A DNA stretch of 64,000 nt, from NCBI GenBank assembly GCA_938004065.1, contig CALKWM010000039.1:65313-129312 (forward strand), given 5' to 3'. Each line of letters opens with the position of its first letter. Position 1 is the stretch's first letter. The notes below the pieces were generated by a model. The model was not told the DNA's origin. It saw nothing but the letters and a program-made list of their open reading frames with translations, and did not search any database. Positions 8,621 to 58,958 of this stretch are shown piece after piece. A program made the position numbers and the translations under genes. The stretch comes from an uncultured bacterium (GTDB lineage: Bacteria > Patescibacteriota > JAHJAL01).

Positions 8621-8899
8621 GATATTAACATTATAACCCCGTTTGGTCGCTAATGAATAATGAATAATTAAGAATTAATTGAGAAACAAAAATTAGGTAT
8701 AATTAAACCGTTAAACATTAATTAACAACAAAAACATCAAATATTAAAAATATTTTTTTAAAATAAATTTCATGCAAATAATATTTGATGCGATTTTCGG
8801 TATGAAATTATTTATTTATATTATTTTTTAAATTATTTATTATTGCATAGTGCCAATTATTTTCCTCATTTGTTATCCTTATTAATTACCAATTTTAAA

Positions 8900-9652
8900 A
8901 TGTCTCAATACTATCAAGCCAACCGAGCCAGAAATATTTATAACCCCAAAGATAAAACACCGTTCAAATTATCCCGCTCTAAAATCGACTTATTTGTCGA
9001 ATGCCCCCGCTGTTTTTACCTCGATCGTCGCCTGGGAGTGGGTCGCCCGCCGGGATTTCCTTTTAGCTTGAATTCCGCGGTGGACAAATTGCTCAAGCAG
9101 GAATTTGATATTCATCGCCGTCATCAAACTACTCATCCTTTGATCGAAAAATACGGTATTGATGCTCATCCGGTAGCACATGAACAACTGGAACAATGGC
9201 GGGAAAATTTTGTCGGGATTCAATACTTGCACCAGCCAACAAATCTGACAATAACCGGCGCAATCGATGATCTTTGGATCAATTCGGCAAATGAATACAT
9301 CGTAGTGGACTACAAATCAACCGCCAAACAAGAACAAATTACCGCTCTCAATCAAGACTGGCACACCGGCTATAAACGGCAGATGGAAATATATCAATGG
9401 CTGCTTCGTCAAAATGGTCTCAAAGTATCCGACATCGGCTATTTTGTCTATTGCAATGGTCGTACCGATCGGGAAGCTTTCGATGGCAAACTGGAGTTTG
9501 ACATTACCTTGATCGCTTATGAAGGCCACGATGCTTGGATAGAACAAGTGCTTAATGATATTTATGCCTGTCTGCAATCATCCGATATCCCGCCTGCCCA
9601 TCCGGATTGCGACTATTGTGCGTATGTTACCGCCAGGCAAAGTTATAAATGA
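8900..9652 (+). CDS. PD-(D/E)XK family nuclease with Cas4/RecB-like Cys cluster
   Basis: N-terminal CPRCFY and C-terminal HPDCDYCAY (CxxC...CxxC) flank a core with a VVDYKST motif (D...E/D-x-K). The start is probably ATG 8900 (MSQYYQ) rather than the track start at 8843. Confidence 0.55.
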   Translation: MSQYYQANRARNIYNPKDKTPFKLSRSKIDLFVECPRCFYLDRRLGVGRPPGFPFSLNSAVDKLLKQEFDIHRRHQTTHPLIEKYGIDAHPVAHEQLEQWRENFVGIQYLHQPTNLTITGAIDDLWINSANEYIVVDYKSTAKQEQITALNQDWHTGYKRQMEIYQWLLRQNGLKVSDIGYFVYCNGRTDREAFDGKLEFDITLIAYEGHDAWIEQVLNDIYACLQSSDIPPAHPDCDYCAYVTARQSYK

Positions 9653-10354: not shown

Positions 10355-12889
10355 CTATATTAATTTTTTTATTAATTCCTTGAACCTTGCCGGCTGAAAT
10401 GGTTTGGTGATAATATCATCCATTCCGGCCTGATAACACTCATCCATTTCTTTCTGAAAAGAATGAGCGGTCTGGGCAACAATAATGTTTCTTTTCGATC
10501 CGGTTGTTTTTTCATATTCCCGAATTTTTTTGGTCGCCTCACAACCATCCATCTGTGGCATCTGGTAATCCATTAAAATTATGTCGTATGGATTTTTCAT
10601 AGCCAGATCCACTGCCTCTTGTCCATTCACCGCCAGATCAATCTGACTTAAACCCATCTTTTCCAGGACTTTTTTAACCAACTTTTGGTTTATCAAATTG
10701 TCTTCCGCCAACAAAATTCTCAAATTCATATCAGCAAATACCGCCTTCTCTTTACTGATTTTTTTGGGGGTTTCTTGTGATTTTTTACCAAATATTTCCC
10801 CCAGAACTTTTTTTAGTTGAATATAACTTATCGGTTTTGAGATAACGGAACAAAAAATATTTTTGTCACCATATTTTTTGCCGTCGGAAGAAAGCAGAAC
10901 TAGCGGTAAATCAGGTTCTATTTTTTTGATTTCTCTCGCCAGCTCCAATCCATCCATTTTTGGCATATGCATATCCAAAATAGCTAGATCCACATCATTG
11001 TACTTGTCTCTTTTGATACCATTAAGGTAATTCAAGGCCTCTGCGCCTGAAGCGGCGGCAAACGGTTTTACCTTTCTGGCCATCAGGTAGTTTGTCAAAC
11101 ATATCCGATTGGTCTCGACGTCGTCCACAATGAGGATTTTCTTTCCCTCCAATTGTGGTAAAACAGCCGACTCATAATTTGCTGATTTGTCTGATCTTGT
11201 GATCTTAATCGTAAAACTAAATGTAGAGCCATTGTTTTCTTCCGTCTCAACCCAGATTCTGCCACCCATTATTTCGACCAATCTTTTTGTGATAGATAGT
11301 CCCAGACCGGTGCCACCGTATTTTCGAGTCGTGGAACTATCGGCTTGCATAAATGGTTTAAACAATAAAAACAGCTTGTCTTCCGCGATGCCGATACCGG
11401 TATCTTTGACGGAAAAAAGCAAATCATCATCATTCTTTGTAACGCTTAAAATAATTTCCCCTCCACTTTTGGTAAATTTGGTTGCGTTTGACAACAAGTT
11501 CGTCAAAACTTGTCTCAATCTCAATCCATCAGCCCAAATAATTTTAGGGACATTTTCGTCAATGAAATAATTCAGTTCCAAAGTATTTTCATAAACCTTG
11601 GGAGAAACAATGTCAATCGCGCACTCCACGCACTCCCGAATATTTATTTTGGATTCATCGAGCTGGATATTGCCCGATTCTATTTTGGATAAATCCAAAA
11701 TATCATTGATTATTGCCAATAGCACATCGGCTGAACTGCTGATAGTATTGAGATATTCTCTTTGTTCGCTGTCTAAATTTGTGTCCGACAGCAAATCCGC
11801 CATTCCGATTATTCCATTCATTGGCGTCCTGATCTCGTGGCTCATATTGGCCAGAAAACTAGTTTTGGCTCGATTGGCGCATTCTGCTTTATCTTTGGCC
11901 TCGAGCAAGTCGCATTGATAAGCTTCAATCGATTTTATCATAAAATCGATATTTTCCGTCAGTCGTGATATTTCATCCCTGCTCTGCCCGATAGGCCTGG
12001 TATCCATTTTTTTTCGATGTGGCACTTGTGATATTTTTGTGTCCAGTTCTATCAAACGGGAAATAATTCTTGTGTTAATGAATTTTATCAACAAAAAACA
12101 AAATACTGACCCAAAGCATAGAAACATGAGGAAATTATACCTTATGCTATTTTTGCCTTGTTTGTAGATGTCTCGTGGCAAGACAACTTTTGTTGTAAAA
12201 ATTGCTTTCCCTTGCGGATCATAAATATTTTTATAACCGGCGATAGTATTGTCAGAAAGTTTGATAGCGTCATCACGAAGTGGCGCAACTATCGTAAGTG
12301 GCAATTCCATTTTTTCGGACAAGTCATTGATAAAATATTTATCAACGTACCTGCCAAATATCAATTTACCTTGCGGTGTGCCGGTTCTGTCTGATTTTAC
12401 AATTGGTTTTGTGCTTACCAAAATAATTCGTCCGTTCAAATCTATAAAACCGCCAAAAAATGACTCATGCGGATGATCTTTTTCGACAAATTTTATCAAT
12501 TCTTCCACCGACCCGTTGAACCTTTTTTCCTGAAAATCATATGAATTGGAATACACAACTCGGTGATCTTTATCCATAAAAACCATCACATTGACTTTAG
12601 TGTTGATATAATCGCTCTCATTGAGATAATTTGTCGAAAAATCTTCAAAATCTCCCCGAACAAACTTGCAACTATCATCCCAACAAGCCCAATCCTCTGT
12701 CGTTCGTTCCAGATCGTCAATTTCTTTATCAAAAAAACTTTTTATTCTACCCAAGTTTTTTTGCATCCTCGACTCTTCTATTTCCGCAAAACTGTTCAAA
12801 AAAATTACATTGGATATTAGATACAAAATCACTACCAAGACTATAAACAAAAACATAATTACAACAGTAGTCTTTGCTTGTAAATTCAC
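10355..12889 (-). CDS. Hybrid sensor histidine kinase with two receiver domains
   Basis: N-terminal TM + roughly 230-aa extracytoplasmic sensor + second TM. HisKA H-box [15 protein letters not shown]. HATPase [12 protein letters not shown]1 ([10 protein letters not shown]...DMHMPKMDG). REC2 ([13 protein letters not shown]...[10 protein letters not shown]). Confidence 0.88.
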
Positions 12890-13127
12890 CTTAACTCATC
12901 CTTTCTAATCGCTTAAAATCTATTTTTAAAGAACCAAAATATCGACAGTATGCATTATAACACCTATTTTCATTATTACTTAATCTTAAATTAATCTTAA
13001 ATTAAGCTAGAAAATTGAGGCATTTTTTTTGCATACTAGAAACTGCCGGCACAACACCGGCAGTTTCATTCGAACAAACAATAATAAATTAAATCACTAA
13101 ACTAATTGTTCATTGCATATTTGCGCC

Positions 13128-13160
13128 CGAGGCGCACCCGCCTTGGGCGGGGAACCTTGA
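13128..13160. repeat. GC-rich double-hairpin REP-like element (gcgccCGAggcgc + cccgccTTGggcggg)
   Basis: Two adjacent perfect 5/6-bp GC palindromes directly 3' of the stop of 13163-15445. Near-identical to the element at 22304-22333 in opposite orientation. Confidence 0.6.
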
Positions 13161-13162
13161 TA

Positions 13163-15445
13163 TTATTTTATTCCCAAAAACTTCAATATCTTGTCTATAA
13201 TATCCTGTAAATCGGTTATTAGTTGCTGAAATGTAGATAATTGAGTTTGAATAGCCGCATCTTCCAAATCCGATTCTTTGTCCCACCAGAACTTGGCGGT
13301 GGCTTTATCCGCTTTGTCAAAGTAACGAACTGTCACAGTTTTCCAGCCTGATTTGATCCGGTAAACATCTGAGTTATGCGCATTTCTTGGTTGCGGGTAC
13401 CATTTGTATAAAATATCTCCCAGTCCTTCCACATTGACCTTCATTCCATCATCAGTGACAGAATGGAAAGTATAATATCCATCTTCAAAGTAAAATCTTC
13501 CTCGCCAGATGGCCGATACATTGTCGCTATGTTTCTCACCATTCATATCCGTAATCAATGAGTCATATCCCCATTCATGATTGACCACATCGCCATCGAT
13601 ATATTCACCTCCAATTACGTTTTCCATCGGAGGATAGTAAACCAAATCTTCAATAATACCATTGTAATAACAACCATGAAATTTATTTTCCGGTGTTTCG
13701 TCACAGTTAACTGGCGATTTTTCCGGAATTACTAAATAATTGGTAGTATTGATTTTGGCTTCTTTTTCTTTTTCTTCATCGGTTTGGACTTTGGTGTCCG
13801 ATGTCACCAACACTTTAACCGAATCAGATAGATAATTTTTTGATACCGGATCATGACAAACAACGAAATACGTGCGGTCATAATCATGTTCGATTACCAC
13901 ACTTTGCTCGCCGGTTTTGCCGGATAAGTTTTCCGACCAATCATTGAAACAATTTACCGGCTCAATTCCTTCAATTGACCAGGTAAATTTTACAGTGTCA
14001 CCTTTTTTCACATTCAAACTTTCTTTGCTGTTACCAAATACCGAAACAGAGGCGGTTGAAGTCGTCGTGGCATAGTCAGACGTGTCATCATCTGTAGATT
14101 TGGTTGCGTCACTGGAAGTAGAAGTAGAGGAAGAAGTTGAAGAAGAAGTGGTTGAAGTGCTTGAGCTCGCGCAAAAGAATGATACCGAATTGGAAAATTG
14201 TTTTTCTGTGCCATCGCTGGCTATTGCATAACCGGAAATTAAGTGCATGCCCGGATATGCTTTTTCATCAAATTTGTATTGATAATTTCGTCCGCCGTAA
14301 GCTCCAACGCCACCGCGGTCAGTCATGCCGGCATCTGTTAGTGACCCCTCAAAGAATTTTTTACCGGTGCTTTTGTCCCCATCCAAATACATAGCGACTT
14401 TACTCGCCTGTTGAACATAAAATTCAGTCGTGCCGCAAACGGTTAAGGCCTGGGTAAAAGAACCGGAAACCTGTGGTGCGGTCTTGGGAGGATCAGGAAC
14501 AACCGGAGAAACATAGATATCGGTGCTTGTGCTTGGGGTGGTAGTTGTGGTCGGTGCCGGATTGGTGGTAGGTGCGGGTGTGGTTGGAGTTGTTGTTATG
14601 GGTGCAGGGGTAGTAGTTGGAGTAGTTGTAGTCGGTGTGGAAGCTGGTGTTGCTTTGCTACTGTCATACGGCATTGTAACCATATCATTGGAATGGTCTT
14701 TGTATGCTACTATTACTTGATATACTCCATATGGATCAATTCCGAAGTTGGAACTAATGTCCTGAATTGTTCCATACATATTTTGTGGAGAAGAACCACC
14801 AACCGGAAAAAAACGATCGCCTTTCAATTTTTGCAAAGTATAATTTCCGATTTTGTCTTTGTCATTATTCAATTGTGCCGGTAAATTAACAGACACTTCG
14901 TATCTGGTACCGATTGAATTGGCTTTTACTCCCGTAATAGTAAAATCACCGGATGGAGCGGTTGTGTAATTGGCCGGACAACTCATCGGAAATGTCTGCT
15001 GACCATTAGAATTATTGTAAACAACATCATAATTTCCATCGGGTTTTATATAATAGGGAAAAACCAGATGTGGGCCACCCCATTTAGTGGTATCAAAACC
15101 AATGCTAAAATTACCTTCCCCATCACTGGTAGTAGAAGCTACTTTGATCCCATCCGAACAAAGTGTACTTTTATCGCATTGCCAGGGGTTTTCTAGTGAG
15201 GCATCGATAACTATATCCAATTTGGTATTGGGAACAATTTTCCCCGAAACTTGTCCGCAACCAACATTGATATTACATGGCACATTATTACCATTGTAAT
15301 TGGCACATGAAGCGTTAGAACTTTCTTGCGCTTGTGAATTTCCAACATTTTTAACCTGAGAAACTATTGAACCGGATCCAATCCCAAACAATAACAACAA
15401 TAGTATCGGTATCAGGTTCTTGATGTTTTTCTTTAAAGTTTTCAT
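13163..15445 (-). CDS. Secreted surface protein with Thr/Pro- and Ser-rich linkers and C-terminal PA14 domain
   Basis: Signal peptide MKTLKKNIKNLIPILLLLLFGIG. Linker TPASTPTTTTPTTTPAPITTTPTTPAPTT. C-terminal ...EKFHGCYYNG...SAIWRGRFYFEDGYYTFHSVTDDGMKVNVEG...KWYPQP is a PA14-type signature. Ends with an amphipathic tail QQLITDLQDIIDKILKFLGIK. Confidence 0.7.
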   Translation of the reverse strand: MKTLKKNIKNLIPILLLLLFGIGSGSIVSQVKNVGNSQAQESSNASCANYNGNNVPCNINVGCGQVSGKIVPNTKLDIVIDASLENPWQCDKSTLCSDGIKVASTTSDGEGNFSIGFDTTKWGGPHLVFPYYIKPDGNYDVVYNNSNGQQTFPMSCPANYTTAPSGDFTITGVKANSIGTRYEVSVNLPAQLNNDKDKIGNYTLQKLKGDRFFPVGGSSPQNMYGTIQDISSNFGIDPYGVYQVIVAYKDHSNDMVTMPYDSSKATPASTPTTTTPTTTPAPITTTPTTPAPTTNPAPTTTTTPSTSTDIYVSPVVPDPPKTAPQVSGSFTQALTVCGTTEFYVQQASKVAMYLDGDKSTGKKFFEGSLTDAGMTDRGGVGAYGGRNYQYKFDEKAYPGMHLISGYAIASDGTEKQFSNSVSFFCASSSTSTTSSSTSSSTSTSSDATKSTDDDTSDYATTTSTASVSVFGNSKESLNVKKGDTVKFTWSIEGIEPVNCFNDWSENLSGKTGEQSVVIEHDYDRTYFVVCHDPVSKNYLSDSVKVLVTSDTKVQTDEEKEKEAKINTTNYLVIPEKSPVNCDETPENKFHGCYYNGIIEDLVYYPPMENVIGGEYIDGDVVNHEWGYDSLITDMNGEKHSDNVSAIWRGRFYFEDGYYTFHSVTDDGMKVNVEGLGDILYKWYPQPRNAHNSDVYRIKSGWKTVTVRYFDKADKATAKFWWDKESDLEDAAIQTQLSTFQQLITDLQDIIDKILKFLGIK

Positions 15446-15489
15446 TATTTTTTGTTTTTATTCTTATTTATATTGATATTTAAATAAAA

Positions 15490-17493
15490 TTATTCAATTC
15501 CGAAAAAATTCAAAACCTTTTGCACCAGATCTTTTAATTGATCAATTAACTGTTCAAAAATTGACAATTGTCTTGACAGTTCCTCAGCTTCAATCGCCGG
15601 TTTCTGATGTTCCCACCAGACTTTAACCGCCGCTTTGTGGCCCTCTTCATAATATCGGACAGTAACAGTATGGTATCCGGCCGATAAGTGTGTTAAGTCG
15701 GATATATGAGTATTTCTAGGTTGTGGATACCATTTATAAATTAGGTTATCGGTATCATCCAATATCACTTTCACTCCATCATCAGCGGTTGCTTTAAACA
15801 GATAGTCGCCCTCACCGAAGTAAAATTCACCTCTCCAGATGGCAGATACATTGTCAGTATATGTAACTCCATCCAGACCGGTGATAATTTTCTCTGTTCC
15901 CCAGTCATGATCTATCCGATTTCCTAAAACCATCTCTCCTCCCAATACAGTTGATTGATCAGGAAAATCAACTTTGTCATCAATTTTACCTTTGTAGTAG
16001 CAACCATGAAATTTTTCTTCCGGTACTTCGGTACATTTTGGAGTGCCACTGTCAGCTGTAACTTTTGGCATCTCGAGCATGGAGGAGTAATCGATCCATT
16101 CACCATTTGTTATTTCATCATCTTTGTCTTTCAAAGATGACTCATCGTCACTCTCGTCCTCTTTGTCTGCTATTTCCTCTTTTTTTTCATCTTCATCAAC
16201 TACTATTTGTTTTCCATCTTCGTCACTGATAATAGTCAAACCATTTGTTTCGCTGGTGGAAATATAGACTCGAGCCATTTTACTTTCTCCGGTGTATAAA
16301 GAAGATTTGTCGCCACTGGTACATGTAATCTGGTATAAATTCGTACCGGCGCCAATTTTAATATCTTTTTTACCGGACGATGACAAATCGCCCAATGGCC
16401 AATTATTCATTTCTTGACCATCACTTTGGCAATATTTAAAAATAGATGAATCGGCTTCCCATTCCAAGGTAGCGGTTTTTCCCTTGGTGAAAACTTCCAT
16501 TGTACCCATATTGTCCTTGGTCATCACTTGATTGGCAGTGTCATAAGTATAATCAAAACCTTTTCCGCTCACTTTGTATGTTTTGTCTCCCACTTTCATA
16601 GTTAATTTCAAAGGATCACTGGATTTTGATAAATCAGTGGAAGGAGTTTCACTTGGTGCATCACTACCGCCTTCAATATTGTAAAACAAAATCTGCATAT
16701 TAGCAGTTTTTTGTTTATACACTGCCACATTATTATTATCCCAACAAGCTAATACTATATTTTTATCTTTAGAAAGATCAAAAGATGCTTGTCCCTCTGG
16801 TTTCATTCTTTTTGATTTTACACTATAATCAGGATAACCAGGAATCAAATTATTTTTTGTTACTTCTTCATAAACGTTTTCTCGTACATAGTTGCCTAAC
16901 TCAGTAGCCCCAAACCAACAATCACTTATGTTATCAGTATTATATTTCCATGATATTGTTCCAGTTGTCACCGGTGTATCGATATATGTATATTTATATG
17001 ACTGATTACCTATCGCTCCTTGTCTACCAACTTTATAACTCTTATTATTCATTGTTATTTCCAAAGTTACATCATCGTCAGTTTTACTGGAATCGAAAGA
17101 TGGCGTTTCGCTCAAAACAACCGGCTCGCTGGTATCGATTTGAATTTCGATCATATTGCTGGCATGGGCGGTAGCAATAGTGTTAACAGCGGTTTCCGTA
17201 ATCATACTGCAACCAATTTGAAATCTATTTTGATGTCTTATGTGCTCGATAGTTTTTGATCCTGTCGCTTCTGTAATCAATTCACCATCCCAGTCATAAC
17301 ATTTCATGCCACCACTCAACAAATTGGCATCCATTGTCCAGCTCAATGTTAACGGATCATTAAATTTTACTTTGGTAGCCGACGCTTCCAGTTTGATCAA
17401 TTCACCAACTGAGGCGTGACTGACTGCCGAAATAAACACAATTGCCGCAACGGGCAATATCAAATACAACCATTTCACAATTTTTGTTTTCAT
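15490..17493 (-). CDS. Secreted PA14-domain surface protein, paralog of 13163-15445
   Basis: Signal peptide. Acidic linker. C-terminal EEKFHGCYYKG...SAIWRGEFYFGEGDYLFKATADDGVKVILDDTDNLIYKWYPQP (PA14-like). Same C-terminal tail FEQLIDQLKDLVQKVLNFFGIE as its neighbour. Confidence 0.7.
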   Translation of the reverse strand: MKTKIVKWLYLILPVAAIVFISAVSHASVGELIKLEASATKVKFNDPLTLSWTMDANLLSGGMKCYDWDGELITEATGSKTIEHIRHQNRFQIGCSMITETAVNTIATAHASNMIEIQIDTSEPVVLSETPSFDSSKTDDDVTLEITMNNKSYKVGRQGAIGNQSYKYTYIDTPVTTGTISWKYNTDNISDCWFGATELGNYVRENVYEEVTKNNLIPGYPDYSVKSKRMKPEGQASFDLSKDKNIVLACWDNNNVAVYKQKTANMQILFYNIEGGSDAPSETPSTDLSKSSDPLKLTMKVGDKTYKVSGKGFDYTYDTANQVMTKDNMGTMEVFTKGKTATLEWEADSSIFKYCQSDGQEMNNWPLGDLSSSGKKDIKIGAGTNLYQITCTSGDKSSLYTGESKMARVYISTSETNGLTIISDEDGKQIVVDEDEKKEEIADKEDESDDESSLKDKDDEITNGEWIDYSSMLEMPKVTADSGTPKCTEVPEEKFHGCYYKGKIDDKVDFPDQSTVLGGEMVLGNRIDHDWGTEKIITGLDGVTYTDNVSAIWRGEFYFGEGDYLFKATADDGVKVILDDTDNLIYKWYPQPRNTHISDLTHLSAGYHTVTVRYYEEGHKAAVKVWWEHQKPAIEAEELSRQLSIFEQLIDQLKDLVQKVLNFFGIE

Positions 17494-19127: not shown

Positions 19128-20156
19128 TTAAAATGTTATTTTAAACATCGCCAACCCCACCCTTCTTTCACCCACCAGTAAATATTTCCCACAAGGTGAA
19201 AAGGCCAGCGACGTTATATTGTCGATCGATAAATTTTGTAGTATCGTCTCTTTTTTCCAATCGACAAGATTTAGATTGCATTCGACACCATTTGCTTTTT
19301 GAGAATACCCGCTGTAGACAATGTATTTCCCGGTATTATCAAATACGATATTAACTGGGTTATCTTCGCGGTTGAAAATTAATTTTTTTGTTAGAACACT
19401 ATTTTCAAACTGTATTGATTTGTGGCCGGCCCAGTTTTTTTTCAATATCTTCAGCTCGTCCGGACAAACACAGGCCAGATACCTATTGTTTGGTGAAAAA
19501 GACATCCGACAACAACTGGCCAAGATTTTCAAAATCCGGTCTTTCTTGTAATCCCACATCCATGTGCCATTTGAGTAATGTTCACTCTTGTTTGGTCCAA
19601 ATGACACCAACAGTATTTGATTGGAAGAAAAAATCATATCAATGATTTTCATACTGTAGGCGCCATAGTTCCATGAATTATATGGGCGATACCCATGTCC
19701 TTTTGTAATATAAAATATATCAGTAGCGCTTTTATCATCTGAATATTCTCCAAAATGATTCAACGCCAGATATGTTTTATAATTGTCCTGTGACTGGCGG
19801 TAACTGACCATACTCGTTGACAAAAAAGTATCTGCAATACCACCCAGATCAATCTCCCCCATTTTCCAGACCCGTTCTCCAAACTCATACAACTCGTACA
19901 ATTTGGAATTGGAAGTGGTAAAAAATATTCTACCGTTTTGATTGATCGTCAAATTCTTAAAAAATTGACCTTTCCCTTCCTCACTGCACATACTAAAAGT
20001 ATGTACACGATCCATTGCCGGCCATGTCCAGACATTGATTTCGGTTATGCAGGCACTAATCATGTATTTCCGATCCTTGGTCCACGCCATACTATGGACA
20101 CCCCAGCCATTTTTGTGACATTCCACAAATTCGTCAAATAACAGTCGCATCCGCAT
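19128..20156 (-). CDS. Hypothetical beta-propeller (WD40-like) repeat protein
   Basis: Repeated segments of the SxxxDxxYLxxG/W type (e.g. LAFSPCGKYLLVGERR, YMISACITEINVWTW). 342 aa, no enzymatic motif. Confidence 0.4.
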   Translation of the reverse strand: MRMRLLFDEFVECHKNGWGVHSMAWTKDRKYMISACITEINVWTWPAMDRVHTFSMCSEEGKGQFFKNLTINQNGRIFFTTSNSKLYELYEFGERVWKMGEIDLGGIADTFLSTSMVSYRQSQDNYKTYLALNHFGEYSDDKSATDIFYITKGHGYRPYNSWNYGAYSMKIIDMIFSSNQILLVSFGPNKSEHYSNGTWMWDYKKDRILKILASCCRMSFSPNNRYLACVCPDELKILKKNWAGHKSIQFENSVLTKKLIFNREDNPVNIVFDNTGKYIVYSGYSQKANGVECNLNLVDWKKETILQNLSIDNITSLAFSPCGKYLLVGERRVGLAMFKITF

Positions 20157-23225: not shown

Positions 23226-26039
23226 ATGAATATTTTTTCTAAATTTACTGCCACCTTTTTATTTGCCTCCATGATATTGAGCGTGGCCGGTTGTGACAAT
23301 GTCAGTAATCAGAATCAAATAATCTCCGGAAATAATCCCACTTCAGCAGGTGAATGGACTCCGATAGACAAGTCAGACGATCAAGCAATCACCAATGGTA
23401 ATTTGGCTCCCATCCCCGCTCCTATCGCTCCCCCGCCATTTTTTAACGCTGACTATGTGAGTTACGAAAGCAATGGCGATAGTATTGCCGGTTGGGATTG
23501 GCTACGAGACCGGGGGTTAAATCATTACGCCCAGTGGACCATCACCAATCTACCTACCAATTTACAGGAATTGGAACTGGATATGGAAGTACTAGCTACC
23601 AATAAAGTTAGTGGTGATCGTGGTTATGACGCTTACTTTGAACTTGATTATTGCCGTAACGATTCGGAAATTTCGGAAGATAATGGTGATATTTTTCGAG
23701 GAGAGACAAATCAACGCGGAGGAGATGCGGAAGAAAATGGCAATAAAACACCTTTGCCGGCCGGTATGTGTCATCAGACGGTTCATCTGGTAAATGTTTC
23801 GACATCAACCGATCCGGTCGGCTATACCTGTCGGGGCCAAGTTTTTATTCCCGCTAGCGCCATTGATAGCAATGGTACTTTAATCATCAGGGCTTATCGA
23901 GCCAATTCGGAAGACAATCATGTCGCTTTCAAAAAAGAATCAATTTCCAATTATTTCCCGGCCGGCAATGAAGGCACGCATTCCGGGGATCTGGACGAAA
24001 ACGGAAATTTAATTGAAGGATCCGACAATTCAACCGCCAACGAAACCGAACTTACAATTGCTGAACTTGATAGTGATGGTGACGGCGTCATCAATACTAA
24101 CGAGGAGTTATTTGGTCTAAATCCTAACAATCCCGACACCGATGGTGATGGTGTAACTGACAACAAAGACATTTCCGGTGCTATCGATCCTAGCGAACCA
24201 ACCGGTTGGCAGGATAAACAGAAAAAAGGCATGGTTCGCAATGAAATCGATATGTTGGCTTGGGGCATGGATGGTTGGGTGGAAAGATACGTCAAGCAAT
24301 ACTCAATTATTCCTCCCCGCTCCTGGTTAAACTACCTGGGTACCGAAGAAAATGAAGGTAGCAAAAAAAGTACCATGACCGAAGAATACTACAAAAAAGC
24401 AATTGATCTGGCTTTTAGTGCCGATAAAATGATTGCCTATGATTTTCAGGATATTAGCCCATCGGATATCGGTGTTGATGATACTGAAAAAACAAATGAT
24501 TATGAACACGAACACGACTACATATACAGTGCCAGTTTGCTTCACCCCAACGAATATCGTTTTTACTATGATGACATCACTGATTATACTCACGTTTCAA
24601 TCAAAAATAGTGAGGAAATAAAATATCCAAGTGAAGACCAATATTTCCGTTATCTGTTGCAACCGATTAAAATATATTCCCATAAAGAAAACAATTTCAC
24701 TCTGCAATTCAAAGACGCGCAACTTTACAATGATATGTATTTGCTAAACGAAAATAATTATCAACAACCTGGATTCATATATTCATTCTATGATAATGAT
24801 AATTTTGACGATGACAACAATACTCCGCTTGACGAAAATCTAGCCATTGCTTGGGTCATCGACAATGGCGTTTTTGAAACAACCATCACTTTACCCGCTG
24901 ACAAAGCAACTATCGGTGGCGGATTCTTGAAAATTACTCCGGTTTGGATCAAAAAACAAAATAACAAAGTTGAATATCTTCCCGCTTCAGTTAACTGGGA
25001 CTTAACCGGTATTTCCCGCAGCGTAACCTTTTTTAACAACGATCAGGGAAATATGAAAACTATGACCCAGGAGTTGGACAATATGGACAAATTGAATACC
25101 GACTGGCCGGCGGAAAATTTTGTTTCCGGGCAAACTACCAATCCCAATTATCATTTCTCATCCGAATGGTACGCCAATATCACCAAAGACCCGCAAGCTA
25201 CTCATCCTTATAGCGGATACGAAGCAACCAGAACTGTCATGAATTTTATCAATCTCGGTCTCAATGTTGACAACAGTGTAATTTCGATGAGTGAATCAAT
25301 CGAACTAAGCCGTTTTAACGGTATCGATGACATCGACCAATTGCCGGACAATCATTGGGCGCGCCAACCCAAATACAGCCAAGCTGTGGGTGCTTTTGCT
25401 CTTGTTGCCGGAGTTGCGTCAATTTCCAGTGATTCCTATGATGCTTACATTGCCGTAAAAAATGGTGAAGCGGTCGATGTGGCCTATTATTCGGCCCGCG
25501 CCACCGTTACCGGCATTAGTACCGCTTCCACTATGATTGGTATTGCCAACAGGACAGTCGGTTACACCGGCAAAGCCACTAAATTTGCCAAGCTGGCCGG
25601 CACCAAAGCCGCTGTTGGTTTGGCTGTTGCCGCCGGCGCCGTCGAGGTGGTTTATGATTCTTATCAACTTTCCAATGCCAACGATCCGATTGAACAAAAA
25701 ATCTATAAAGAAAAAATTGCTGCCGATGTTTTAAATACCGGTTTATCGGTTGGAGCGATTTTAGCACCGCATGCTTTGGCATTCCAAATTACTTGGACGG
25801 TCGAAGCCGAGATCTATGCTGCGATATTTGGCGAAGATTTTGCCTATCAAGTCGCCTCCTCTCCGGGAAGTGCCGCCGTATTTCTAACACAATATTTTAT
25901 TACCGGAGGTATTCCGAGTCAAATGGCAACCGCCGCCTATGAAGATGCTCGCAACGATATTTTTTACCAAATTGAAACCCATATGACTGGCGTGGGATTA
26001 CCGTTTATGACCATCTTTATCGATCCTGATTTGTCATAA
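23226..26039 (+). CDS. Large lipoprotein with thrombospondin type-3-like calcium-binding repeats and a C-terminal Ala/Gly-rich hydrophobic region
   Basis: Lipobox SVAGC. DSDGDGVINTNEELFGLNPNNPDTDGDGVTDNKD (TSP3/calcium-binding D-x-D-x-D-G). C-terminal roughly 250 aa rich in small-residue amphipathic/hydrophobic helices (AVGAFALVAGVASISS...AAVGLAVAAGAVEVV). Confidence 0.55.
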   Translation: MNIFSKFTATFLFASMILSVAGCDNVSNQNQIISGNNPTSAGEWTPIDKSDDQAITNGNLAPIPAPIAPPPFFNADYVSYESNGDSIAGWDWLRDRGLNHYAQWTITNLPTNLQELELDMEVLATNKVSGDRGYDAYFELDYCRNDSEISEDNGDIFRGETNQRGGDAEENGNKTPLPAGMCHQTVHLVNVSTSTDPVGYTCRGQVFIPASAIDSNGTLIIRAYRANSEDNHVAFKKESISNYFPAGNEGTHSGDLDENGNLIEGSDNSTANETELTIAELDSDGDGVINTNEELFGLNPNNPDTDGDGVTDNKDISGAIDPSEPTGWQDKQKKGMVRNEIDMLAWGMDGWVERYVKQYSIIPPRSWLNYLGTEENEGSKKSTMTEEYYKKAIDLAFSADKMIAYDFQDISPSDIGVDDTEKTNDYEHEHDYIYSASLLHPNEYRFYYDDITDYTHVSIKNSEEIKYPSEDQYFRYLLQPIKIYSHKENNFTLQFKDAQLYNDMYLLNENNYQQPGFIYSFYDNDNFDDDNNTPLDENLAIAWVIDNGVFETTITLPADKATIGGGFLKITPVWIKKQNNKVEYLPASVNWDLTGISRSVTFFNNDQGNMKTMTQELDNMDKLNTDWPAENFVSGQTTNPNYHFSSEWYANITKDPQATHPYSGYEATRTVMNFINLGLNVDNSVISMSESIELSRFNGIDDIDQLPDNHWARQPKYSQAVGAFALVAGVASISSDSYDAYIAVKNGEAVDVAYYSARATVTGISTASTMIGIANRTVGYTGKATKFAKLAGTKAAVGLAVAAGAVEVVYDSYQLSNANDPIEQKIYKEKIAADVLNTGLSVGAILAPHALAFQITWTVEAEIYAAIFGEDFAYQVASSPGSAAVFLTQYFITGGIPSQMATAAYEDARNDIFYQIETHMTGVGLPFMTIFIDPDLS

Positions 26040-26068
26040 ATATCCATTGAAAATGTATTTTACGATTT

Positions 26069-26097
26069 GGGCGAACTTTTTTTAAAAAAGTTCGCCC
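26069..26097. terminator. Bidirectional rho-independent terminator
   Basis: Perfect 14-bp palindrome gggcgaactttttt/aaaaaagttcgccc with T/A runs on both sides. Confidence 0.7.
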
Positions 26098-26191
26098 AGA
26101 TTTAAAAATTTCCCCAAATATCATCTATTCTTATTCATGAATAATTGTCCAAAAAAATGATACAATAAAAAATGTTAGCATACCAATACGC

Positions 26192-27985
26192 ATGAAGAAA
26201 AAAACTTCAATCATTTACAAAAAATGGCCTTGGATAGGTCAATTATTTCTTGCGTCCCATAGAACTTTTTTGTTTTTCATGGTTTTTTTTGTATTTTCAA
26301 ACTCATTTTCAAATCCTGCTCTTGCTACCGGTGGTATGGTTTTTACACCAACCCAAAAAACATTTTCTCCGGCTGAAAAAGAACACCCGGAGGTTGAAAC
26401 TCTCGGCTCAAAAATCTATTACGTCTGGCAAGAATATAACGGCAGTTTCAACCAGATCTGGACGGCCGAAATGAACACCGACGGCACCGGTTGGACTGCC
26501 ACCAAACAGACAACTACCGGCTACAATAAACAATATCCTCATATGTCCATCTCCGGCTCAAAAATCTATTATGTTTGGCAGGAATACGACGGCAGTTTCA
26601 ACCAGATCTGGACCGCCGAAATGAACTCCGATGGCACCAGTTGGTTAGCTACGAAACGTACTACCTCTTTATTCAACAAAACCAATCCCAAATTATATGT
26701 TTTGGGATCTAAAATATATTACACTTGGGACGAAAAAGACGCGGGCGGATTATCCCAAATCTGGACGGCTGAGATGAATACCAATGGCACCGGCTTTACC
26801 GCCACTCCTCGCACTTCAACTTTTTTCAATTCTTCACCTGACTTTAAAATTTACAACAATCAACTCTTTATTGTCTGGTCCAGATATGACAGCGCCACAC
26901 CCGGTTGGCACAAATTGATGTTATCGCAGATGAATACGGATGGCACGGGTTGGATGGAAAATGAACTTGATTCATCCAACTTTTGTGAATTTGTCGATCA
27001 AATGCCCAAAATCGAAGTCGACAATGGTAATGTAGTTGTTTCTTATTTGAAATGTGAATACTATAAACCCTTGTCCGGCTATTATCTCAACCAAAGACTG
27101 GGGGTGGTAAATGCCACATCAAACGGTTGGAAACATGAAAGACTAATTGAACCCACTTTCTCGACTATCGCCGATATTCAGATTTATCTGAGCAATGTCT
27201 ATGTCAGTTGGGGCTCGGCTTCGGACAATCAAATATGGACAGGGGTCTTGGATCTGGATGATTTTGAATGGCGTCCAACCATTCGTACCAATTCCGGCAC
27301 CATTAAAACCAATCCATCAATAGCAATTAACGATCCCTCAGTTTACTATACATGGTCGCAACAAGATGGCGTTGGAGACAATCAAATCTGGACTGCTGTT
27401 GAGACCAATCAAGATTCCATTGCCTCCAATACCAACGTTACCGCCACCGTGCCCAGCTATATGGTTTTCACTGTATATGGTATCAATAGTGGCACTGTCA
27501 ATGGCACCCCGGTCAATATTGTTTCTGCTCCCACCGACGTTAATTTTGGAATTATTAACGGCGCGAACAATCGTGTTGCCGCCCAGGAATTGGAAGTCAG
27601 AACCAATGCTTCCGGGGGTTACACCGTTACTATCCAATACACCGCCAACCTTTCCTCCGGTATCGACACTATCAACAACTTTACCGGTACTAACACCGCC
27701 CCCGCTCCTTGGAATACTCCACCCGGCTCCGGCACCGAAGGGTATTTTGGTTACACTACGGAAGATTTCACTTTGGGTACCGGCATTCCTGATCGATTCT
27801 CCACCAACCTCTGGTCCGGGTTTACGTCCGCTCCTCTCGAAGTCATGTACCACAACACACCGGTAGATGGTACTATCGCCGGTATTGGTGTTACCCGTAT
27901 CGGTTACCAACTGGAGATCACCAATTTCCAACCTAGCGGCACATACACCTCCGATGTTACTTATATTTGCACCCCGGTATATTAG
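26192..27985 (+). CDS. Secreted tandem-repeat protein (Asp-box/BNR-like beta-propeller candidate)
   Basis: Signal peptide. At least 5 copies of a roughly 45-aa repeat GSKIYYVWQEYxGSFNQIWTAEMNxDGTGWxATK with a DGTxW motif reminiscent of Asp-boxes. A Thr/Gly-rich C-terminal domain follows. Confidence 0.55.
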   Translation: MKKKTSIIYKKWPWIGQLFLASHRTFLFFMVFFVFSNSFSNPALATGGMVFTPTQKTFSPAEKEHPEVETLGSKIYYVWQEYNGSFNQIWTAEMNTDGTGWTATKQTTTGYNKQYPHMSISGSKIYYVWQEYDGSFNQIWTAEMNSDGTSWLATKRTTSLFNKTNPKLYVLGSKIYYTWDEKDAGGLSQIWTAEMNTNGTGFTATPRTSTFFNSSPDFKIYNNQLFIVWSRYDSATPGWHKLMLSQMNTDGTGWMENELDSSNFCEFVDQMPKIEVDNGNVVVSYLKCEYYKPLSGYYLNQRLGVVNATSNGWKHERLIEPTFSTIADIQIYLSNVYVSWGSASDNQIWTGVLDLDDFEWRPTIRTNSGTIKTNPSIAINDPSVYYTWSQQDGVGDNQIWTAVETNQDSIASNTNVTATVPSYMVFTVYGINSGTVNGTPVNIVSAPTDVNFGIINGANNRVAAQELEVRTNASGGYTVTIQYTANLSSGIDTINNFTGTNTAPAPWNTPPGSGTEGYFGYTTEDFTLGTGIPDRFSTNLWSGFTSAPLEVMYHNTPVDGTIAGIGVTRIGYQLEITNFQPSGTYTSDVTYICTPVY

Positions 27986-27998
27986 ATAACTTTCAAAA

Positions 27999-29075
27999 AT
28001 GTTTGCCTTTACCGTCAAAACTGATTCAACGACCGGAAAAAAAATTTTAAACCTGAGCTTTATCTCCATCAACCACGCTCTGGTTGACATGGTGTGTGCT
28101 TATTTGCTTTTTAGTGTAATAACCCAAAACCTCGTTGTAGACGATCAATTTGTCTATTTAATCATCTGGTACGGATTGTTGGCTTTTGGTCTGCAACCTC
28201 TGTGTGGATTGATTATAGATTACTATCAAATCCCGTATCAGGCCCTTGCACTTTCGTTGGGAGTGTTGCTCACCTCGATTTTGGCCTATTTTATTTCTCC
28301 ATGGCTATCAATCACACTCTGCGCCTTGGCCAATGCAATTTTTCATGTCTCGGCCGGCACCATCAGTTTCAATATCACTCCTCAAAAAGCATCCGCTCCC
28401 GGGATCTATGTCGGTCCGGGCGCTTTGGGACTATTCCTGGGAACATGGCTCGGACGTCATCATCCGGAAAAATTTTGTCTTATTTTGATTGCCATTTTAG
28501 TTTTATCAATTTTCGTTCTCTATCTGATACCTCCCATCAAGATAGATTACCAAATTAAAAAAATATCCCGAAATAATACCTTCTGGTTAGTGTTGTTGGG
28601 ATTGTTATTGGTGGTTGGTTTTAGATCAATTGTAGGCATGTCTTTGGTTTTTGCCTGGAAATCGGAGTTTATTCTAGCGGTATTGCTCGTAATTTTTGTA
28701 GTCATCGGCAAAATGCTTGCCGGTCTTGTCGCCGATCGTTTTGGCTGGCTAAAAACTTGTTTTATCGGATTGATTTTGTCGATACCCTTATTATATTTGG
28801 GCGCCGATATTCCATATCTGGCTTTCTTTGGTGCATTGTCGTATCAAGTCACTATGCCGGTAACACTCACCGCCGTCGCTTTGTTGTGGCCCGGTCGTCC
28901 CGGCTGGGCCTTTGGTTTACCTTGCGGTGCTCTAATTTTGGGTGCGCTGATAACTTTTTTCGACGTGGACAAAACACTGACCACCTACATTCCCCTCGTT
29001 ATTATCATCCAAATTGTCATAATCATATTTTCATTAAATTATTTTTATAAATTAACAAAAAACAATCATGGCTAA
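27999..29075 (+). CDS. Polytopic membrane protein (MFS-like transporter candidate)
   Basis: 358 aa with about 10 hydrophobic helices. No catalytic motif. Confidence 0.45.
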   Translation: MFAFTVKTDSTTGKKILNLSFISINHALVDMVCAYLLFSVITQNLVVDDQFVYLIIWYGLLAFGLQPLCGLIIDYYQIPYQALALSLGVLLTSILAYFISPWLSITLCALANAIFHVSAGTISFNITPQKASAPGIYVGPGALGLFLGTWLGRHHPEKFCLILIAILVLSIFVLYLIPPIKIDYQIKKISRNNTFWLVLLGLLLVVGFRSIVGMSLVFAWKSEFILAVLLVIFVVIGKMLAGLVADRFGWLKTCFIGLILSIPLLYLGADIPYLAFFGALSYQVTMPVTLTAVALLWPGRPGWAFGLPCGALILGALITFFDVDKTLTTYIPLVIIIQIVIIIFSLNYFYKLTKNNHG

Positions 29076-35689: not shown

Positions 35690-36070
35690 TTATTACTCCA
35701 CCCCCTTTAAAGTAATTTGACCAGTTTTATTATATTATATTGCAGACAAATTGTTTAGAATTTTGTTGTATAGGAAAAGCGCTCCCGTTCAATATAAACG
35801 AGGCGCTTTGTGAGCAAAAAGCTCGGCAAGTGGAGATGGCCGAGCCTATTTCGAACATATTGAATTATTAGTTAACAGACATTTACCGGCGTTCCAAAAA
35901 TGGGGCGAGTTTATCTTATTGATAAAAAAAGAATGGGAGAATAAGGTATTATCACAAGATTGGCAGGCAAATTTGTCATTCAAATATTAGCGATAAATAA
36001 ATAAGAAGGCCGTGTTTCGAACATTGCATTTGAGATATAATATAAATGTATTATGTTATAACTTTAGTAA

Positions 36071-36394
36071 ATGATTGAATTATTTAATACAGCCGTAAGA
36101 TCACCAGTAATAATAACGTTAACTGTCTTATATTTTCTGACTTCGTCTATTACTACGTTTGATATCAGAATGACTCAAGGGAAATGTGATGGGACCATTC
36201 CCTCCAATGAACAAATGCCACCAAGATGGGTTGCTTTAATTTACTGGATTGATTGGCTGCTTATCATTGCTATATTTTTGCTTAACTGGAAATATGCAGT
36301 ATTAGTTTTTATCGTCAAGTTTATTCTTCAGGTTTTACCAGTTTTGGAGATAGCGGGAAATATTTTAATGTCTCCTTTTAAACGAAAAGGTTAA
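36071..36394 (+). CDS. Island-encoded small membrane protein (hypothetical)
   Basis: 107 aa, 3 hydrophobic helices. Confidence 0.35.
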   Translation: MIELFNTAVRSPVIITLTVLYFLTSSITTFDIRMTQGKCDGTIPSNEQMPPRWVALIYWIDWLLIIAIFLLNWKYAVLVFIVKFILQVLPVLEIAGNILMSPFKRKG

Positions 36395-36400
36395 CGACTT

Positions 36401-36874
36401 ATGACCGAATTAACAAAATTACAGAAATTAATTATTCTACTGTATGCAGGTAATGCATATAGTGCTTATCGAGATAATAGTTTAACTGAATTATTTTCAA
36501 AATCGAAAGCATATTTAGACAAGTATTCCAATCAACCTATGAAACAATATGGCGGCGGTTGTGCGCTTTATATAATGAAACAAGTATTAGCAGGGGAAAT
36601 AAAATATAACGAAAAAGAAATCAGCGATGAACTTAAAAAGGTTTGGTTGTCTATAGCCATAGGATTTGAACTTACAAGCACATCACTTGAATTACCAAAA
36701 TATTTGCTGCCAATCGTAAGACTATTTGCCGCACCACATATTAAAGATAAGGGTTTTTCAGAATGGGTAGCAAAATACAACCAAGAATTATCTGTTTATA
36801 TCAGTTTGATAAATGGCCTTGAAAATATCCAAAAAAATTGCGATGTCCATCAAACTGTTTTTGATAGAAATTAA
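36401..36874 (+). CDS. Island-encoded hypothetical protein
   Basis: 157-aa ORF 6 bp after the previous gene. No motif. Confidence 0.35.
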   Translation: MTELTKLQKLIILLYAGNAYSAYRDNSLTELFSKSKAYLDKYSNQPMKQYGGGCALYIMKQVLAGEIKYNEKEISDELKKVWLSIAIGFELTSTSLELPKYLLPIVRLFAAPHIKDKGFSEWVAKYNQELSVYISLINGLENIQKNCDVHQTVFDRN

Positions 36875-36892
36875 TATATTAATAATAAGTCT

Positions 36893-37385
36893 ATGAGTGA
36901 AGATAACGAACAAAAGGAAAATGACGATTTGCTTGAGTTGGTTAAAACAGCCAAAGATATCGATATTAAAGAAAAGTCTGACAAAAATGATAAGGGATTT
37001 GAAGATAATAAAGGAAATTGGGTCAAATTCAATGAGAAAGAAAAAAGCAGAACTTTCACGGAAAATTAAACCTATAGGCCGGCAGGCGTTATATTCATTG
37101 ATAAGCTGTGATGCAAAAAGCGTGATTGAGAGGCTGAAAGAATTAAGTCAAAGCAAGAATGAAAATGTTGCTTTGGGTGCTTGTAAGGTACTAATTAACA
37201 AGATTTTACCCGATATTAGCAGTATTGGCTTGCTTGATTTACAGTTGGTTGAGCATCAAAAAGGGAATGAAATAATTGATATAGCGGTTGATAGACTAAA
37301 AAAGACGAGTGATGCTTATATTATTGATGAAAATGGCTATTTTAAAAACGAAAAAGATGCTGTCGCTTTTTTAGAAAATAATTAA
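36893..37385 (+). CDS. Island-encoded hypothetical protein, possibly frameshifted at an A-run
   Basis: ATG 36893 opens a 59-aa frame (MSEDNEQKEND...) that ends at 37069. A second frame (MRKKKAELSRK... to 37385) overlaps from about 37036. The junction is at gaaaaaag (about 37040). Confidence 0.3.
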
Positions 37386-37395
37386 GATATATTTT

Positions 37396-37740
37396 ATGGA
37401 ATTAGAAAAAGCTGAAAATATTGTTCGCATTTGGGGTATTTTTCTCGAACATTCTTTTGGCAAATTAAATTTGCTTTTTATGGCTAAAATACCAGACTTC
37501 TTTTTGCCTTTTCCAAAAGAAACAATTGAAGTAGCTGTTAATACTATTGCCGAAATGCATCATAATGCTGGCAATACTGAGGCGGTAAATTCTCTACAGA
37601 GTACTTTGCCATATCTTATTGGTTTTATTGATAATGAACAAGCTATTATAAATGCAGCGAAATTGTTTAAAGACGACAAATATCGGGATAAAATTTTGCC
37701 GGCTTTGAAAAGAAATCAGGATAATTGGATAAATATATAG
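37396..37740 (+). CDS. Island-encoded hypothetical protein
   Basis: 114-aa ORF. Confidence 0.35.
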   Translation: MELEKAENIVRIWGIFLEHSFGKLNLLFMAKIPDFFLPFPKETIEVAVNTIAEMHHNAGNTEAVNSLQSTLPYLIGFIDNEQAIINAAKLFKDDKYRDKILPALKRNQDNWINI

Positions 37741-37776
37741 AAATAATAAAACCAATTTTGCATAATAAGTGTAATT

Positions 37777-38172
37777 ATGAACACTACAAAATATGAAAAT
37801 CTTAAAATGAAGGAAAGATATTTGCCAATATCAGTTAGTGAAATAATGCTGATTGTAGCCGGCGCAATTGTCTTTCTATTACATAATTTAAGTGAATACA
37901 GACTAATATTCATTATTGCAGTTATAGGATTGTATTGGCTTAAAATTAGACTGATTGAAACTAAAATTCAAAATAAAAAACAAGAGATTTATAATGTCTT
38001 CTATGATAAATGTAAACCTGTTGCAATGAAGGTTATAGAGGGCAAAACAAGAATTGCCAGAAAGCCACTCGAGTATGAAATGGACCAATTAGAATTTGAC
38101 AGAAAATGCTTAGTGGATAAGTTTGTAGTTATAAATCTTATTCTAATGATTTTAATTCAATTATTTTTTTAA
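37777..38172 (+). CDS. Island-encoded membrane protein (hypothetical)
   Basis: 131 aa with two TM helices. Confidence 0.35.
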   Translation: MNTTKYENLKMKERYLPISVSEIMLIVAGAIVFLLHNLSEYRLIFIIAVIGLYWLKIRLIETKIQNKKQEIYNVFYDKCKPVAMKVIEGKTRIARKPLEYEMDQLEFDRKCLVDKFVVINLILMILIQLFF

Positions 38173-38250
38173 TTTAATTTGTCAACACCACACTTAACAG
38201 ATATGAACGACGGGGAGTATAAATAAATTATTGTTATTAAGAGGTAAGCA

Positions 38251-38844: not shown

Positions 38845-38877
38845 TATTATTTATCATTTTTTTACTAAATTATAATT

Positions 38878-39576: not shown

Positions 39577-39657
39577 ATATTTATAAATACAGTAAAAGAA
39601 TATTTAACCATCTCAAATGCGAGGTGGTTAAATTATAATTGATACATACATTATTAT

Positions 39658-58929: not shown

Positions 58930-58958
58930 ATTTACTCCCTGCAAACAAATAAATATAC

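Follow-up and report, generated by a model that had tools for sequence, protein, structure and literature searches.

Two adjacent genes of an uncultured bacterium encode predicted secreted proteins that join a PA14 domain to a C-terminal amphipathic helix

The window considered here is the whole 64,000-nucleotide stretch of DNA (contig CALKWM010000039.1, positions 65,313 to 129,312) from an uncultured bacterium, and its subject is a pair of adjacent genes on the reverse strand, B and, downstream of it, A. The two form a two-gene unit, and their products, which are otherwise assembled from different domains, end in the same module, which by profile and model comparison is a complete PA14 domain, followed by an amphipathic helix that occupies the extreme C-terminus. 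It is unusual for a terminal PA14 domain to be followed by a helix. The explanation we favour, at a little less than an even chance, is that A and B are Sec-secreted, disulfide-bonded modular proteins that bind glycans in a Ca2+-dependent manner and become multivalent through a coiled coil at the C-terminus; as regards PA14 and secretion, this explanation is well supported.

Both open reading frames (ORFs) exist as described in the initial annotation, which had called them paralogous tandem genes of 760 and 667 aa on the same strand, and they are co-oriented and separated by 44 bp (table 1). The C-terminal 181 residues of A and B share 48% identity (69% positives, one gap, E = 2e-59 by BLASTP), and outside them BLASTP finds nothing significant between the two proteins. 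The C-terminal motifs quoted by the annotation (KFHGCYY, SAIWRG, DDG.KV, KWYPQPRN.H.SD and LS.F.QLI..L.D) are each present and, in a six-frame translation of the whole window, confined to these two genes; a hidden Markov model of the 36-residue tail returned no third copy in the 64 kb even at E <= 100. Neither A nor B has a match in NCBIfam or PADLOC, and a protein identical to that of gene B is also encoded on ENA, NCBI and Logan contigs.

That B and A are a two-gene unit is concluded because the 44-bp gap contains no terminator-like site, strong hairpins follow A, and a B-like-then-A-like order recurs in the metagenome contig L002, where, 31 bp after a B-type gene, there begins a gene encoding an A-type leader and a Thr/Pro linker, so that the tandem order is kept. 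The region 3' of A (13030..13162, reverse strand) is unusually structured when folded as RNA (-51.3 kcal/mol, z = -5.0, 0 shuffles as stable), and only the last of the three hairpins found there has the look of a classical intrinsic terminator; the hairpins likely mark the end of the B-A transcription unit. Promoter scanning gave 22 sites with 20.3 expected from shuffles, i.e. no better than shuffles. Read by eye, a perfect TATAAT is found at 17533-17538 of the reverse strand, 40 nt 5' of the B ATG.

The PA14 identity first proposed from motifs holds in three independent tests. Pfam PA14 (PF07691) scores A at 25.7 bits and B at 28.5 bits with a cut-off of 24, and four related metagenomic proteins (P0002, P0003, P0004 and P0006) at 24.4-30.4. 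The profile of the module, when run on PDB sequences, retrieves the PA14 dyad of RsgI3 (6qe7, E = 5e-15), 6qdi (E = 5e-6) and the PA14 lectins of RTX adhesins. Finally, AlphaFold2 (AF2) folds B residues 481-667 into a sandwich of 11 beta strands, where the PA14 fold has ten, followed by a single helix, and the top PDB matches of this model by Foldseek are all PA14 proteins (Epa1A, MpPA14, Cea1A, Flo and RsgI; E from 4e-5 to 1e-3, probability 1.00), with template modelling (TM) scores of 0.41-0.45, which are low because the model is moderate in quality and the helix was included. Within the module, KFHGCYY is the first PA14 strand, and a conserved Cys pair stands before it.

In lectin-type PA14 domains, the Ca2+ ion that contacts the sugar hydroxyls is held by two consecutive cis Asp residues (DcisD) and a polar residue of CBL2, while a Tyr stabilizes the DcisD cis peptide (PMC6852018; PMC8092209). 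HMMER alignments place the ADDG or TDDG of the present family on the TDDG of RsgI3 PA14-A and the ADDG of MpPA14, and the family RY[YF][ED] on EYYQ, so that Y614 and E616 of B match the Tyr and the Q/N of CBL2. The two Asp, the Tyr and the acidic residue are identical in A and B and are retained in every family member. Through these residues, A and B would bind Ca2+ and a glycan.

The shared amphipathic helix of about 30 residues that the annotation had placed at the end of both proteins is also recovered. It corresponds to residues 156-183 of the modelled B module, with a predicted local distance difference test score (pLDDT) of 91-93, and the last 28 residues combine a mean Kyte-Doolittle (KD) hydropathy of 0.12-0.15 with a helical hydrophobic moment of about 1.45 on the same scale, so that the tail is amphipathic rather than membrane-spanning. 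In the nine sequences compared, hydrophobic residues fall at tail positions 8, 12, 15, 19, 22, 26, 29 and 33 of 36, i.e. with strict 4-3 spacing through four heptads; the resulting a/d occupancy of 0.89-0.90 is matched by 28-66 of 10,000 shuffles (p ~ 0.003-0.007), and an additional hydrophobic stripe runs along g (positions 18, 25 and 32). An alpha-helical coiled coil is recognized by hydrophobic a/d positions over at least 3-4 heptads, and this is the pattern that the tail displays. Substitutions are absent or conservative in the hydrophobic columns and at Lys28 and Gly34, whereas the polar columns are variable, and all nine sequences carry a net charge of between -1 and -3. Columns 20, 21, 23, 27, 31 and 36 differ between A-type and B-type tails (charge complementarity was viewed by eye). 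Overall, the tail profile fits helix-helix or helix-protein packing, and an in-plane membrane anchor fits less well. We infer an oligomerizing role for the helix because of its periodicity, charge and conservation and the absence of alternatives. Among the three functions that the initial annotation had offered for it, namely anchoring, sorting and oligomerization, this one is the most plausible, whereas sorting or anchoring of a known class does not suit an acidic tail with neither a transmembrane segment nor a sorting motif.

The hydrophobic face of the helix is wide, comprising a, d, g and, near the end, e, and the invariant residues include a Lys and a Gly, as might be expected also if the helix docked in a groove of a membrane- or wall-anchored partner or capped its own PA14 domain; the cassette of PA14 and helix would then be a non-covalent attachment and the heads the functional parts. 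Constant cassettes on swapped heads are, indeed, the pattern of anchoring modules, and no other retention device is left once the signal is cleaved. Such docking or capping is nevertheless judged unlikely, as no conserved candidate partner adjoins the genes (the neighbours of family members differ in contigs L004, L005 and L006, the pairing of B with A being the only conserved one) and no complementary helix or tail-like sequence is found elsewhere in the window. The present data do not separate it from self-association.

The possibility that the helix lies in the plane of the membrane has its precedent in PBP5, the periplasmic carboxypeptidase of Escherichia coli, which is held on the outer face of the cytoplasmic membrane by a C-terminal amphipathic helix (PMC2909392). 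The position of the helix at the very end of a secreted protein, its hydrophobic moment and the aromatic residues near its end (FFG or FLG) would all be compatible with a similar role. However, an anchor of the PBP5 type calls for a cationic or interfacial helix suited to anionic membranes, whereas the tail, although amphipathic, is net acidic in all sequences and has a polar face rich in Gln, Asp and Glu, which would be unfavourable on an anionic bacterial membrane, and the strict 3-4 repeat over four heptads is typical of coiled coils; thus, the in-plane anchor is distinctly improbable.

That the tail is a sorting or secretion signal of a known class (LPXTG, PEP-CTERM, the C-terminal domain (CTD) of type IX secretion or a type I secretion signal), to be recognized and possibly removed by a dedicated machine, appears largely refuted by its sequence, and its probability is very small. 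The extreme C-terminal position, the conservation, the invariant Gly three residues from the end and the occurrence of two ABC exporter genes 5-8 kb away would favour it. On the other hand, the tail alignment contains neither a transmembrane segment nor a basic tail, LPXTG or PEP motif, and the marks of sortase and exosortase signals (LPXTG, PEP-CTERM, GlyGly-CTERM), in which a short motif precedes a hydrophobic transmembrane helix and a basic end, are missing, the tail being acidic and the only transmembrane-like segment N-terminal. A helical tail of 36 aa is unlike the beta-sandwich of about 80 aa of type IX CTDs, and N-terminal Sec leaders and the lack of RTX repeats are unlike type I substrates. 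The two ABC proteins consist of ABC_membrane and ABC_tran domains only, with no C39 domain or HlyD-type partner, and the tail is carried by only two proteins in 64 kb. The dedicated sortase- or exosortase-like partner that had been suggested did not emerge either, since the window ORFs of at least 150 aa that were scanned include no sortase, exosortase, HlyD-type adaptor or type I secretion partner.

The rarity of the arrangement became apparent when 1.84 billion representative proteins were searched exhaustively by HMMER with a two-sequence (A plus B) profile. Nearly all of the 4317 matches cover the PA14 core only (profile positions ~45-150), many of them in multi-repeat giants, and profile position 188 is reached only by P0001, P0002, P0003, P0004, P0006 and P0056. 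The last PA14-like domain lies at most 60 aa from the C-terminus in 67 of the 150 best relatives, and the tail is found in the six family members only, which agrees with the view of the initial annotation that a helix after PA14 is out of the ordinary. Two further contigs with the tail, L088 and L089, came from a metagenome scan, and the nine family sequences found are all metagenomic. The tail is thus present in orthologues from other samples, and neither of the absences that the annotation had named as fatal to it, of PA14 or of the tail, was encountered. GTDB species-representative genome contigs scanned with the module gave no relative, because the family is absent or because the search patterns missed it, and the viral contigs scanned contained no family member, so that the family is not phage-borne. 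A word-indexed homologue search with the C-terminal 182 aa of B found nothing and, with a 7-sequence profile, only P0001 and P0056, exhaustive HMMER being needed to recover the family. The helix is a lineage-restricted addition, undescribed in the libraries searched, and a modest twist on a very common domain rather than a novel type of system. As to the PA14 cores closest to but outside the family (P0005, P0007-P0011 and P0014), they belong to giants of 1344-3567 aa with 7-15 PA14-like repeats; repeats and coiled coil are suggested to be alternative routes to PA14 multivalency.

The family falls into an A-type group (A, P0001, P0056, L088 and L089), ending in KFLG[IV]K, and a B-type group (B, P0002, P0003, P0004 and P0006), ending in FFG[IV]E, with the B-type tail conserved in all four relatives of B. 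P0002 is an orthologue of B at 73% identity and P0006 another, while P0001, P0056, L088 and L089 are orthologues of A or fragments of such; it follows that the duplication is older than the divergence of these organisms. What precedes the cassette is far less constant. Contigs L003 (encoding P0003; 1515..2178) and L004 (encoding P0002; 3982..4645), from two different JGI metagenomes, are 98.8% identical over the last 664 nt of the genes, which encode the acidic/Thr linker, PA14 and the tail, and unrelated over the 5' 1.4 kb, a pattern which indicates that the C-terminal cassette has recently been joined to another head by recombination. Similarly, in P0006 the leader is A-like and the cassette B-type, and L088 is collinear with A from residue ~313 to 760 but does not share residues 1 to ~300. 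A second PA14-like segment was suspected in the N-terminus of L088, and Pfam gave no support for it.

Between orthologues, the ratio of nonsynonymous to synonymous substitution rates (dN/dS) is 0.03 in the A-type tail (A versus L088) and 0.05 in PA14. The three N-terminal domains of B give 0.07-0.13, and pairs that are more distant give 0.20-0.29; all are rough figures because dS is saturated. On this comparison, variation in the family is of the kind produced by cassette and head swapping under purifying selection, and the diversifying selection that the initial annotation had invoked finds no support. Its statement that the N-terminal two-thirds have 'diverged completely' stands in so far as A and B have no significant similarity there; as judged from their sequences, however, the two differ in domain composition, with heads swapped, and are not diverged copies of one architecture.

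Secretion of A and B followed by signal cleavage is predicted from their leaders. Each protein has one N-terminal hydrophobic segment and none elsewhere, in agreement with the signal peptides of the initial annotation, and the segment is followed by a signal-peptidase-like site: that of B is a -3/-1 small-residue site, SHA/S, read by eye, and no lipobox Cys is present. The longer leader of A, with the pattern LFGIG...IV.Q.K.VQ.S.A(Q/K), appears by eye to be common to A, P0003, P0006 and the second gene of L002 (2367..2490). The proteins with this leader differ in their mature N-termini, and B and P0002 have an ordinary short leader; the shared long leader could represent a lineage-specific class of signal peptide or a recognition motif.

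The heads that follow have no Pfam family above cut-off in A, B or the other family members. The first and third domains of B are repeats of a Cys-pair domain of about 80 aa (hhalign, domain 3 versus domain 1, E = 1.9e-4), the third also resembles a domain of P0003 (90% probability by hhalign), and profile-profile comparison of the domain before PA14 in A with the B domains gives a weak match at best (E ~ 0.01). In A, Cys-rich domains (40-260) are followed by a Thr/Pro linker (261-312), a beta domain (313-425), a Ser/Thr linker (426-465), a Cys-pair beta domain (466-552) and a Glu/Lys linker (553-574). Composition agrees with the Thr/Pro, Ser/Thr and acidic linkers noted initially (A 261-310 Thr/Pro, A 421-470 Ser/Thr, B 421-460 Asp/Glu/Lys), and the linker of B at 419-480 is its fastest-evolving region, with 47% identity to P0002. 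The AF2 model of full-length B is unreliable (pLDDT 42.3, too poor for a fold search), and all that it conveys is beta structure, disorder in the acidic linker and the helix at the end. The cysteines of the N-terminal parts of A and B are paired, one pair per putative domain, and disulfides are accordingly predicted in both; together with a membrane-anchored DsbA/thioredoxin-like protein, encoded at 58249..58944 (reverse strand), the pairing is consistent with extracytoplasmic disulfides.

Table 1. Features of genes B and A and of the region downstream of them (positions in the window; protein features as predicted)
Feature	Positions	Strand	Remarks
Gene B	15490..17493	-	ORF of 667 aa, upstream member of the pair; secreted modular protein with B-type PA14+helix cassette
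B residues 1-27, predicted Sec signal peptide	17413..17493	-	MKTKIVKWLYLILPVAAIVFISAVSHA, then SVGE; sole strongly hydrophobic segment of B, KD19 up to 2.19
B residues 28-418	16240..17412	-	Three all-beta domains, one Cys pair each: 65/95, 192/250, 355/391
B residues 419-480, acidic Asp/Glu/Lys-rich low-complexity linker	16054..16239	-	From composition; pLDDT 25-32, no secondary structure
B residues 481-631, complete PA14 beta-sandwich	15601..16053	-	Cys487-Cys498 pair, DD 571-572, Tyr614, Glu616
B residues 632-667, B-type tail	15493..15600	-	Amphipathic helix ~636-663, ends FFGIE; net charge -3
Gene A	13163..15445	-	ORF of 760 aa, downstream member of the pair; secreted modular protein with A-type PA14+helix cassette
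A residues 1-39, long leader	15329..15445	-	MKTLKKNIKNLIPILLLLLFGIGSGSIVSQVKNVGNSQA, then QE; hydrophobic segment KD19 2.24; site SQA/Q read from sequence
A residues 40-574	13724..15328	-	Multi-domain head and linkers, from composition and Cys positions
A residues 575-725, PA14 beta-sandwich	13271..13723	-	Cys581-Cys592 pair, DD within VTDDG, RYFD
A residues 726-760, A-type tail	13166..13270	-	Amphipathic helix, ends KFLGIK
Three stable hairpins	13040..13152	-	Just 3' of the A stop codon; the last is a 12-bp stem, then UUUCU
CHASE4 hybrid histidine kinase	10355..12889	-	273 bp downstream of A, same strand

Taken together, these elements may be assembled into the favoured mechanism as follows. 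An uncultured, deep-branching bacterium would express B and A from one two-gene unit, each protein comprising a variable N-terminal head, flexible low-complexity linkers and a constant C-terminal cassette, in which a Cys-clamped PA14 domain with its Asp-Asp/Tyr/acidic constellation precedes an acidic amphipathic helix of 28 residues in four heptads. An extracytoplasmic location would be expected because of the N-terminal leader, the single Cys pair per domain and the membrane-anchored DsbA-like protein. There, PA14 would bind carbohydrate belonging to a substrate, a partner cell or the envelope of the producer itself, and the terminal helices would associate in a short coiled-coil bundle, homo-oligomeric or A-B hetero-oligomeric, which would cluster several PA14 sites for avidity and tie the variable heads together.

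Several points weigh against this explanation. The margins by which Pfam recognizes PA14 are small, and the A-type orthologue L088 is without any Pfam family at E <= 0.01. The AF2 model of B 481-667 is of moderate quality (mean pLDDT 69.6, predicted TM score 0.59). The DD/Y/E signature occurs in ~95% of 703 PA14 domains taken from the 150 best relatives, and such a generic signature implies that the site is not degenerate but is no proof of sugar binding. Once the signal is cleaved, no obvious device would retain the proteins on the cell; the label 'surface protein', under which they had initially been annotated, is therefore not established, and they may be released instead. A bolder version, in which linker, PA14 and helix would form a sortase-independent display module, with PA14 on the envelope glycan of the producer itself and the helices of A and B hetero-oligomeric, so that swapped heads would be presented in fixed stoichiometry, has only a slim chance of being correct; if true, it would mean that cell-surface proteins are anchored and diversified in a manner not described before.

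PA14 is among the most widespread carbohydrate-binding modules, found in adhesins, sensors and glycosidases, and the avidity of its single, low-affinity sites is usually explained by repeats in one chain. A terminal coiled coil that oligomerizes single-PA14 proteins would, if confirmed, be a different solution to the avidity problem, and the cassette would be a compact lectin-plus-oligomerization tag for engineering. Furthermore, the pattern of one cassette on variable heads gives a hint of the means by which the secreted or surface proteins of an uncultured lineage are varied. For the moment, the very small size of the family limits the impact.

The CHASE4 hybrid histidine kinase encoded downstream of A raises the question of whether the PA14 proteins might be its extracellular polysaccharide sensors, in analogy with the RsgI biomass sensors, the more so as the closest solved relative is the PA14 sensor dyad of RsgI3 and the kinase gene is on the same strand. 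Strong hairpins separate A from the kinase gene, however, the kinase is not found beside family members in L005 or L006, and neither an anti-sigma part nor a part for transmembrane signalling is found in A or B, which leaves little to recommend the idea. This histidine-kinase-coupled sensor, along with the sorting-signal and type I secretion readings, was weighed and rejected. Upstream of B are found a divergently oriented membrane protein without known family, then a helix-turn-helix (HTH) protein, a WD40 protein and a DUF2130 protein; the bacterial WD40-repeat protein (19128..20156, reverse strand) adjoins the HTH regulator. Further downstream of A, the two ABC exporter genes are accompanied by genes for a PD-(D/E)XK nuclease and for the pentose-phosphate pathway. 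The nuclease (8843..9652, forward strand) is a stand-alone Cas4-like protein, near which a CRISPR array was not noticed.

Elsewhere, the window encodes RNase Y-YmdB, Gmad2 and many lipobox proteins. GroEL of this bacterium has 60-68% identity to its counterparts in Bacillota, Gracilibacteria, Peregrinibacteria, other Patescibacteria, Chloroflexota and Actinomycetota, with no phylum standing out. Three successive large ORFs at 23226..29075 (forward strand; 937, 597 and 358 aa) have no Pfam family, the first carries a lipobox-like LSVAGC leader, and all three are also present on the ENA contig L001. A low-GC segment of ~5.3 kb (GC 0.31-0.33) within 35825..41583 lies between direct 18-bp copies of the tmRNA 3' end (35825-35842 and 41166-41183), and a large serine recombinase gene in it (39658..41253, forward strand) abuts the tmRNA gene (41169..41581, reverse strand), whose tag peptide is unusually long (ANTFVAKLKSLFTPQFSMATAVA); the segment looks like a mobile element integrated at ssrA.

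Among known systems, the closest solved sequence relatives of A and B are RsgI3 of Clostridium thermocellum (6qe7) and RsgI4 of C. clariflavum (6qdi), with which they share the beta-sandwich and the aligned beta5 DD pair, Tyr and polar or acidic CBL2 residue. The RsgI PA14 dyads bind polysaccharide through Ca2+ (PMC6852018). RsgI proteins are, however, membrane-spanning anti-sigma factors with two tandem C-terminal PA14 domains and no terminal helix, whereas A and B begin with a cleavable leader and unrelated beta domains and end with a single PA14 domain and a helix; an anti-sigma domain, one transmembrane helix, a PA14 dyad and an adjacent sigI are all lacking, and no sigI or other sigma-factor gene was found near A and B. 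The RTX adhesins (MpIBP with MpPA14, 5j6y; Lap-type, 6m8m) are, like the favoured picture of A and B, bacterial, extracellular and modular, match their PA14 in fold and sequence, and use PA14 as a Ca2+-dependent sugar-binding module (PMC8092209). They differ in being type I secretion substrates that are devoid of a Sec leader, contain RTX repeats and are held at the outer membrane by a retention module, features of which A and B show none, and in placing PA14 inside a ligand-binding region rather than at the end; conversely, A and B have N-terminal leaders and no RTX match in Pfam, and the ABC genes of the window lack an adaptor. PBP5 resembles A and B in being exported and in ending with an extreme C-terminal amphipathic helix in place of a transmembrane segment (PMC2909392), but there is no homology, the tail of A and B being longer, acidic and heptad-periodic.

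The fungal Flo, Epa and Cea adhesins, which provide the best Foldseek matches (TM ~0.4-0.45, 12-21% identity), likewise combine a PA14 lectin carrying DcisD-type residues with a Ser/Thr-rich stalk, but the order is reversed, with PA14 N-terminal and the C-terminus anchored by glycosylphosphatidylinositol instead of ending in an amphipathic helix. In collectins such as mannose-binding protein and SP-D, a short helix beside a Ca2+-dependent lectin domain oligomerizes the protein and thereby confers avidity; the analogy with A and B is functional only, since the C-type lectin fold is unrelated, the neck precedes the lectin domain and trimerization is demonstrated in the collectins. A and B are, therefore, members of the PA14 superfamily that stand apart from the RsgI, RTX-adhesin and fungal Flo/Epa families, because the architectures that define each of these were looked for and differ from theirs.

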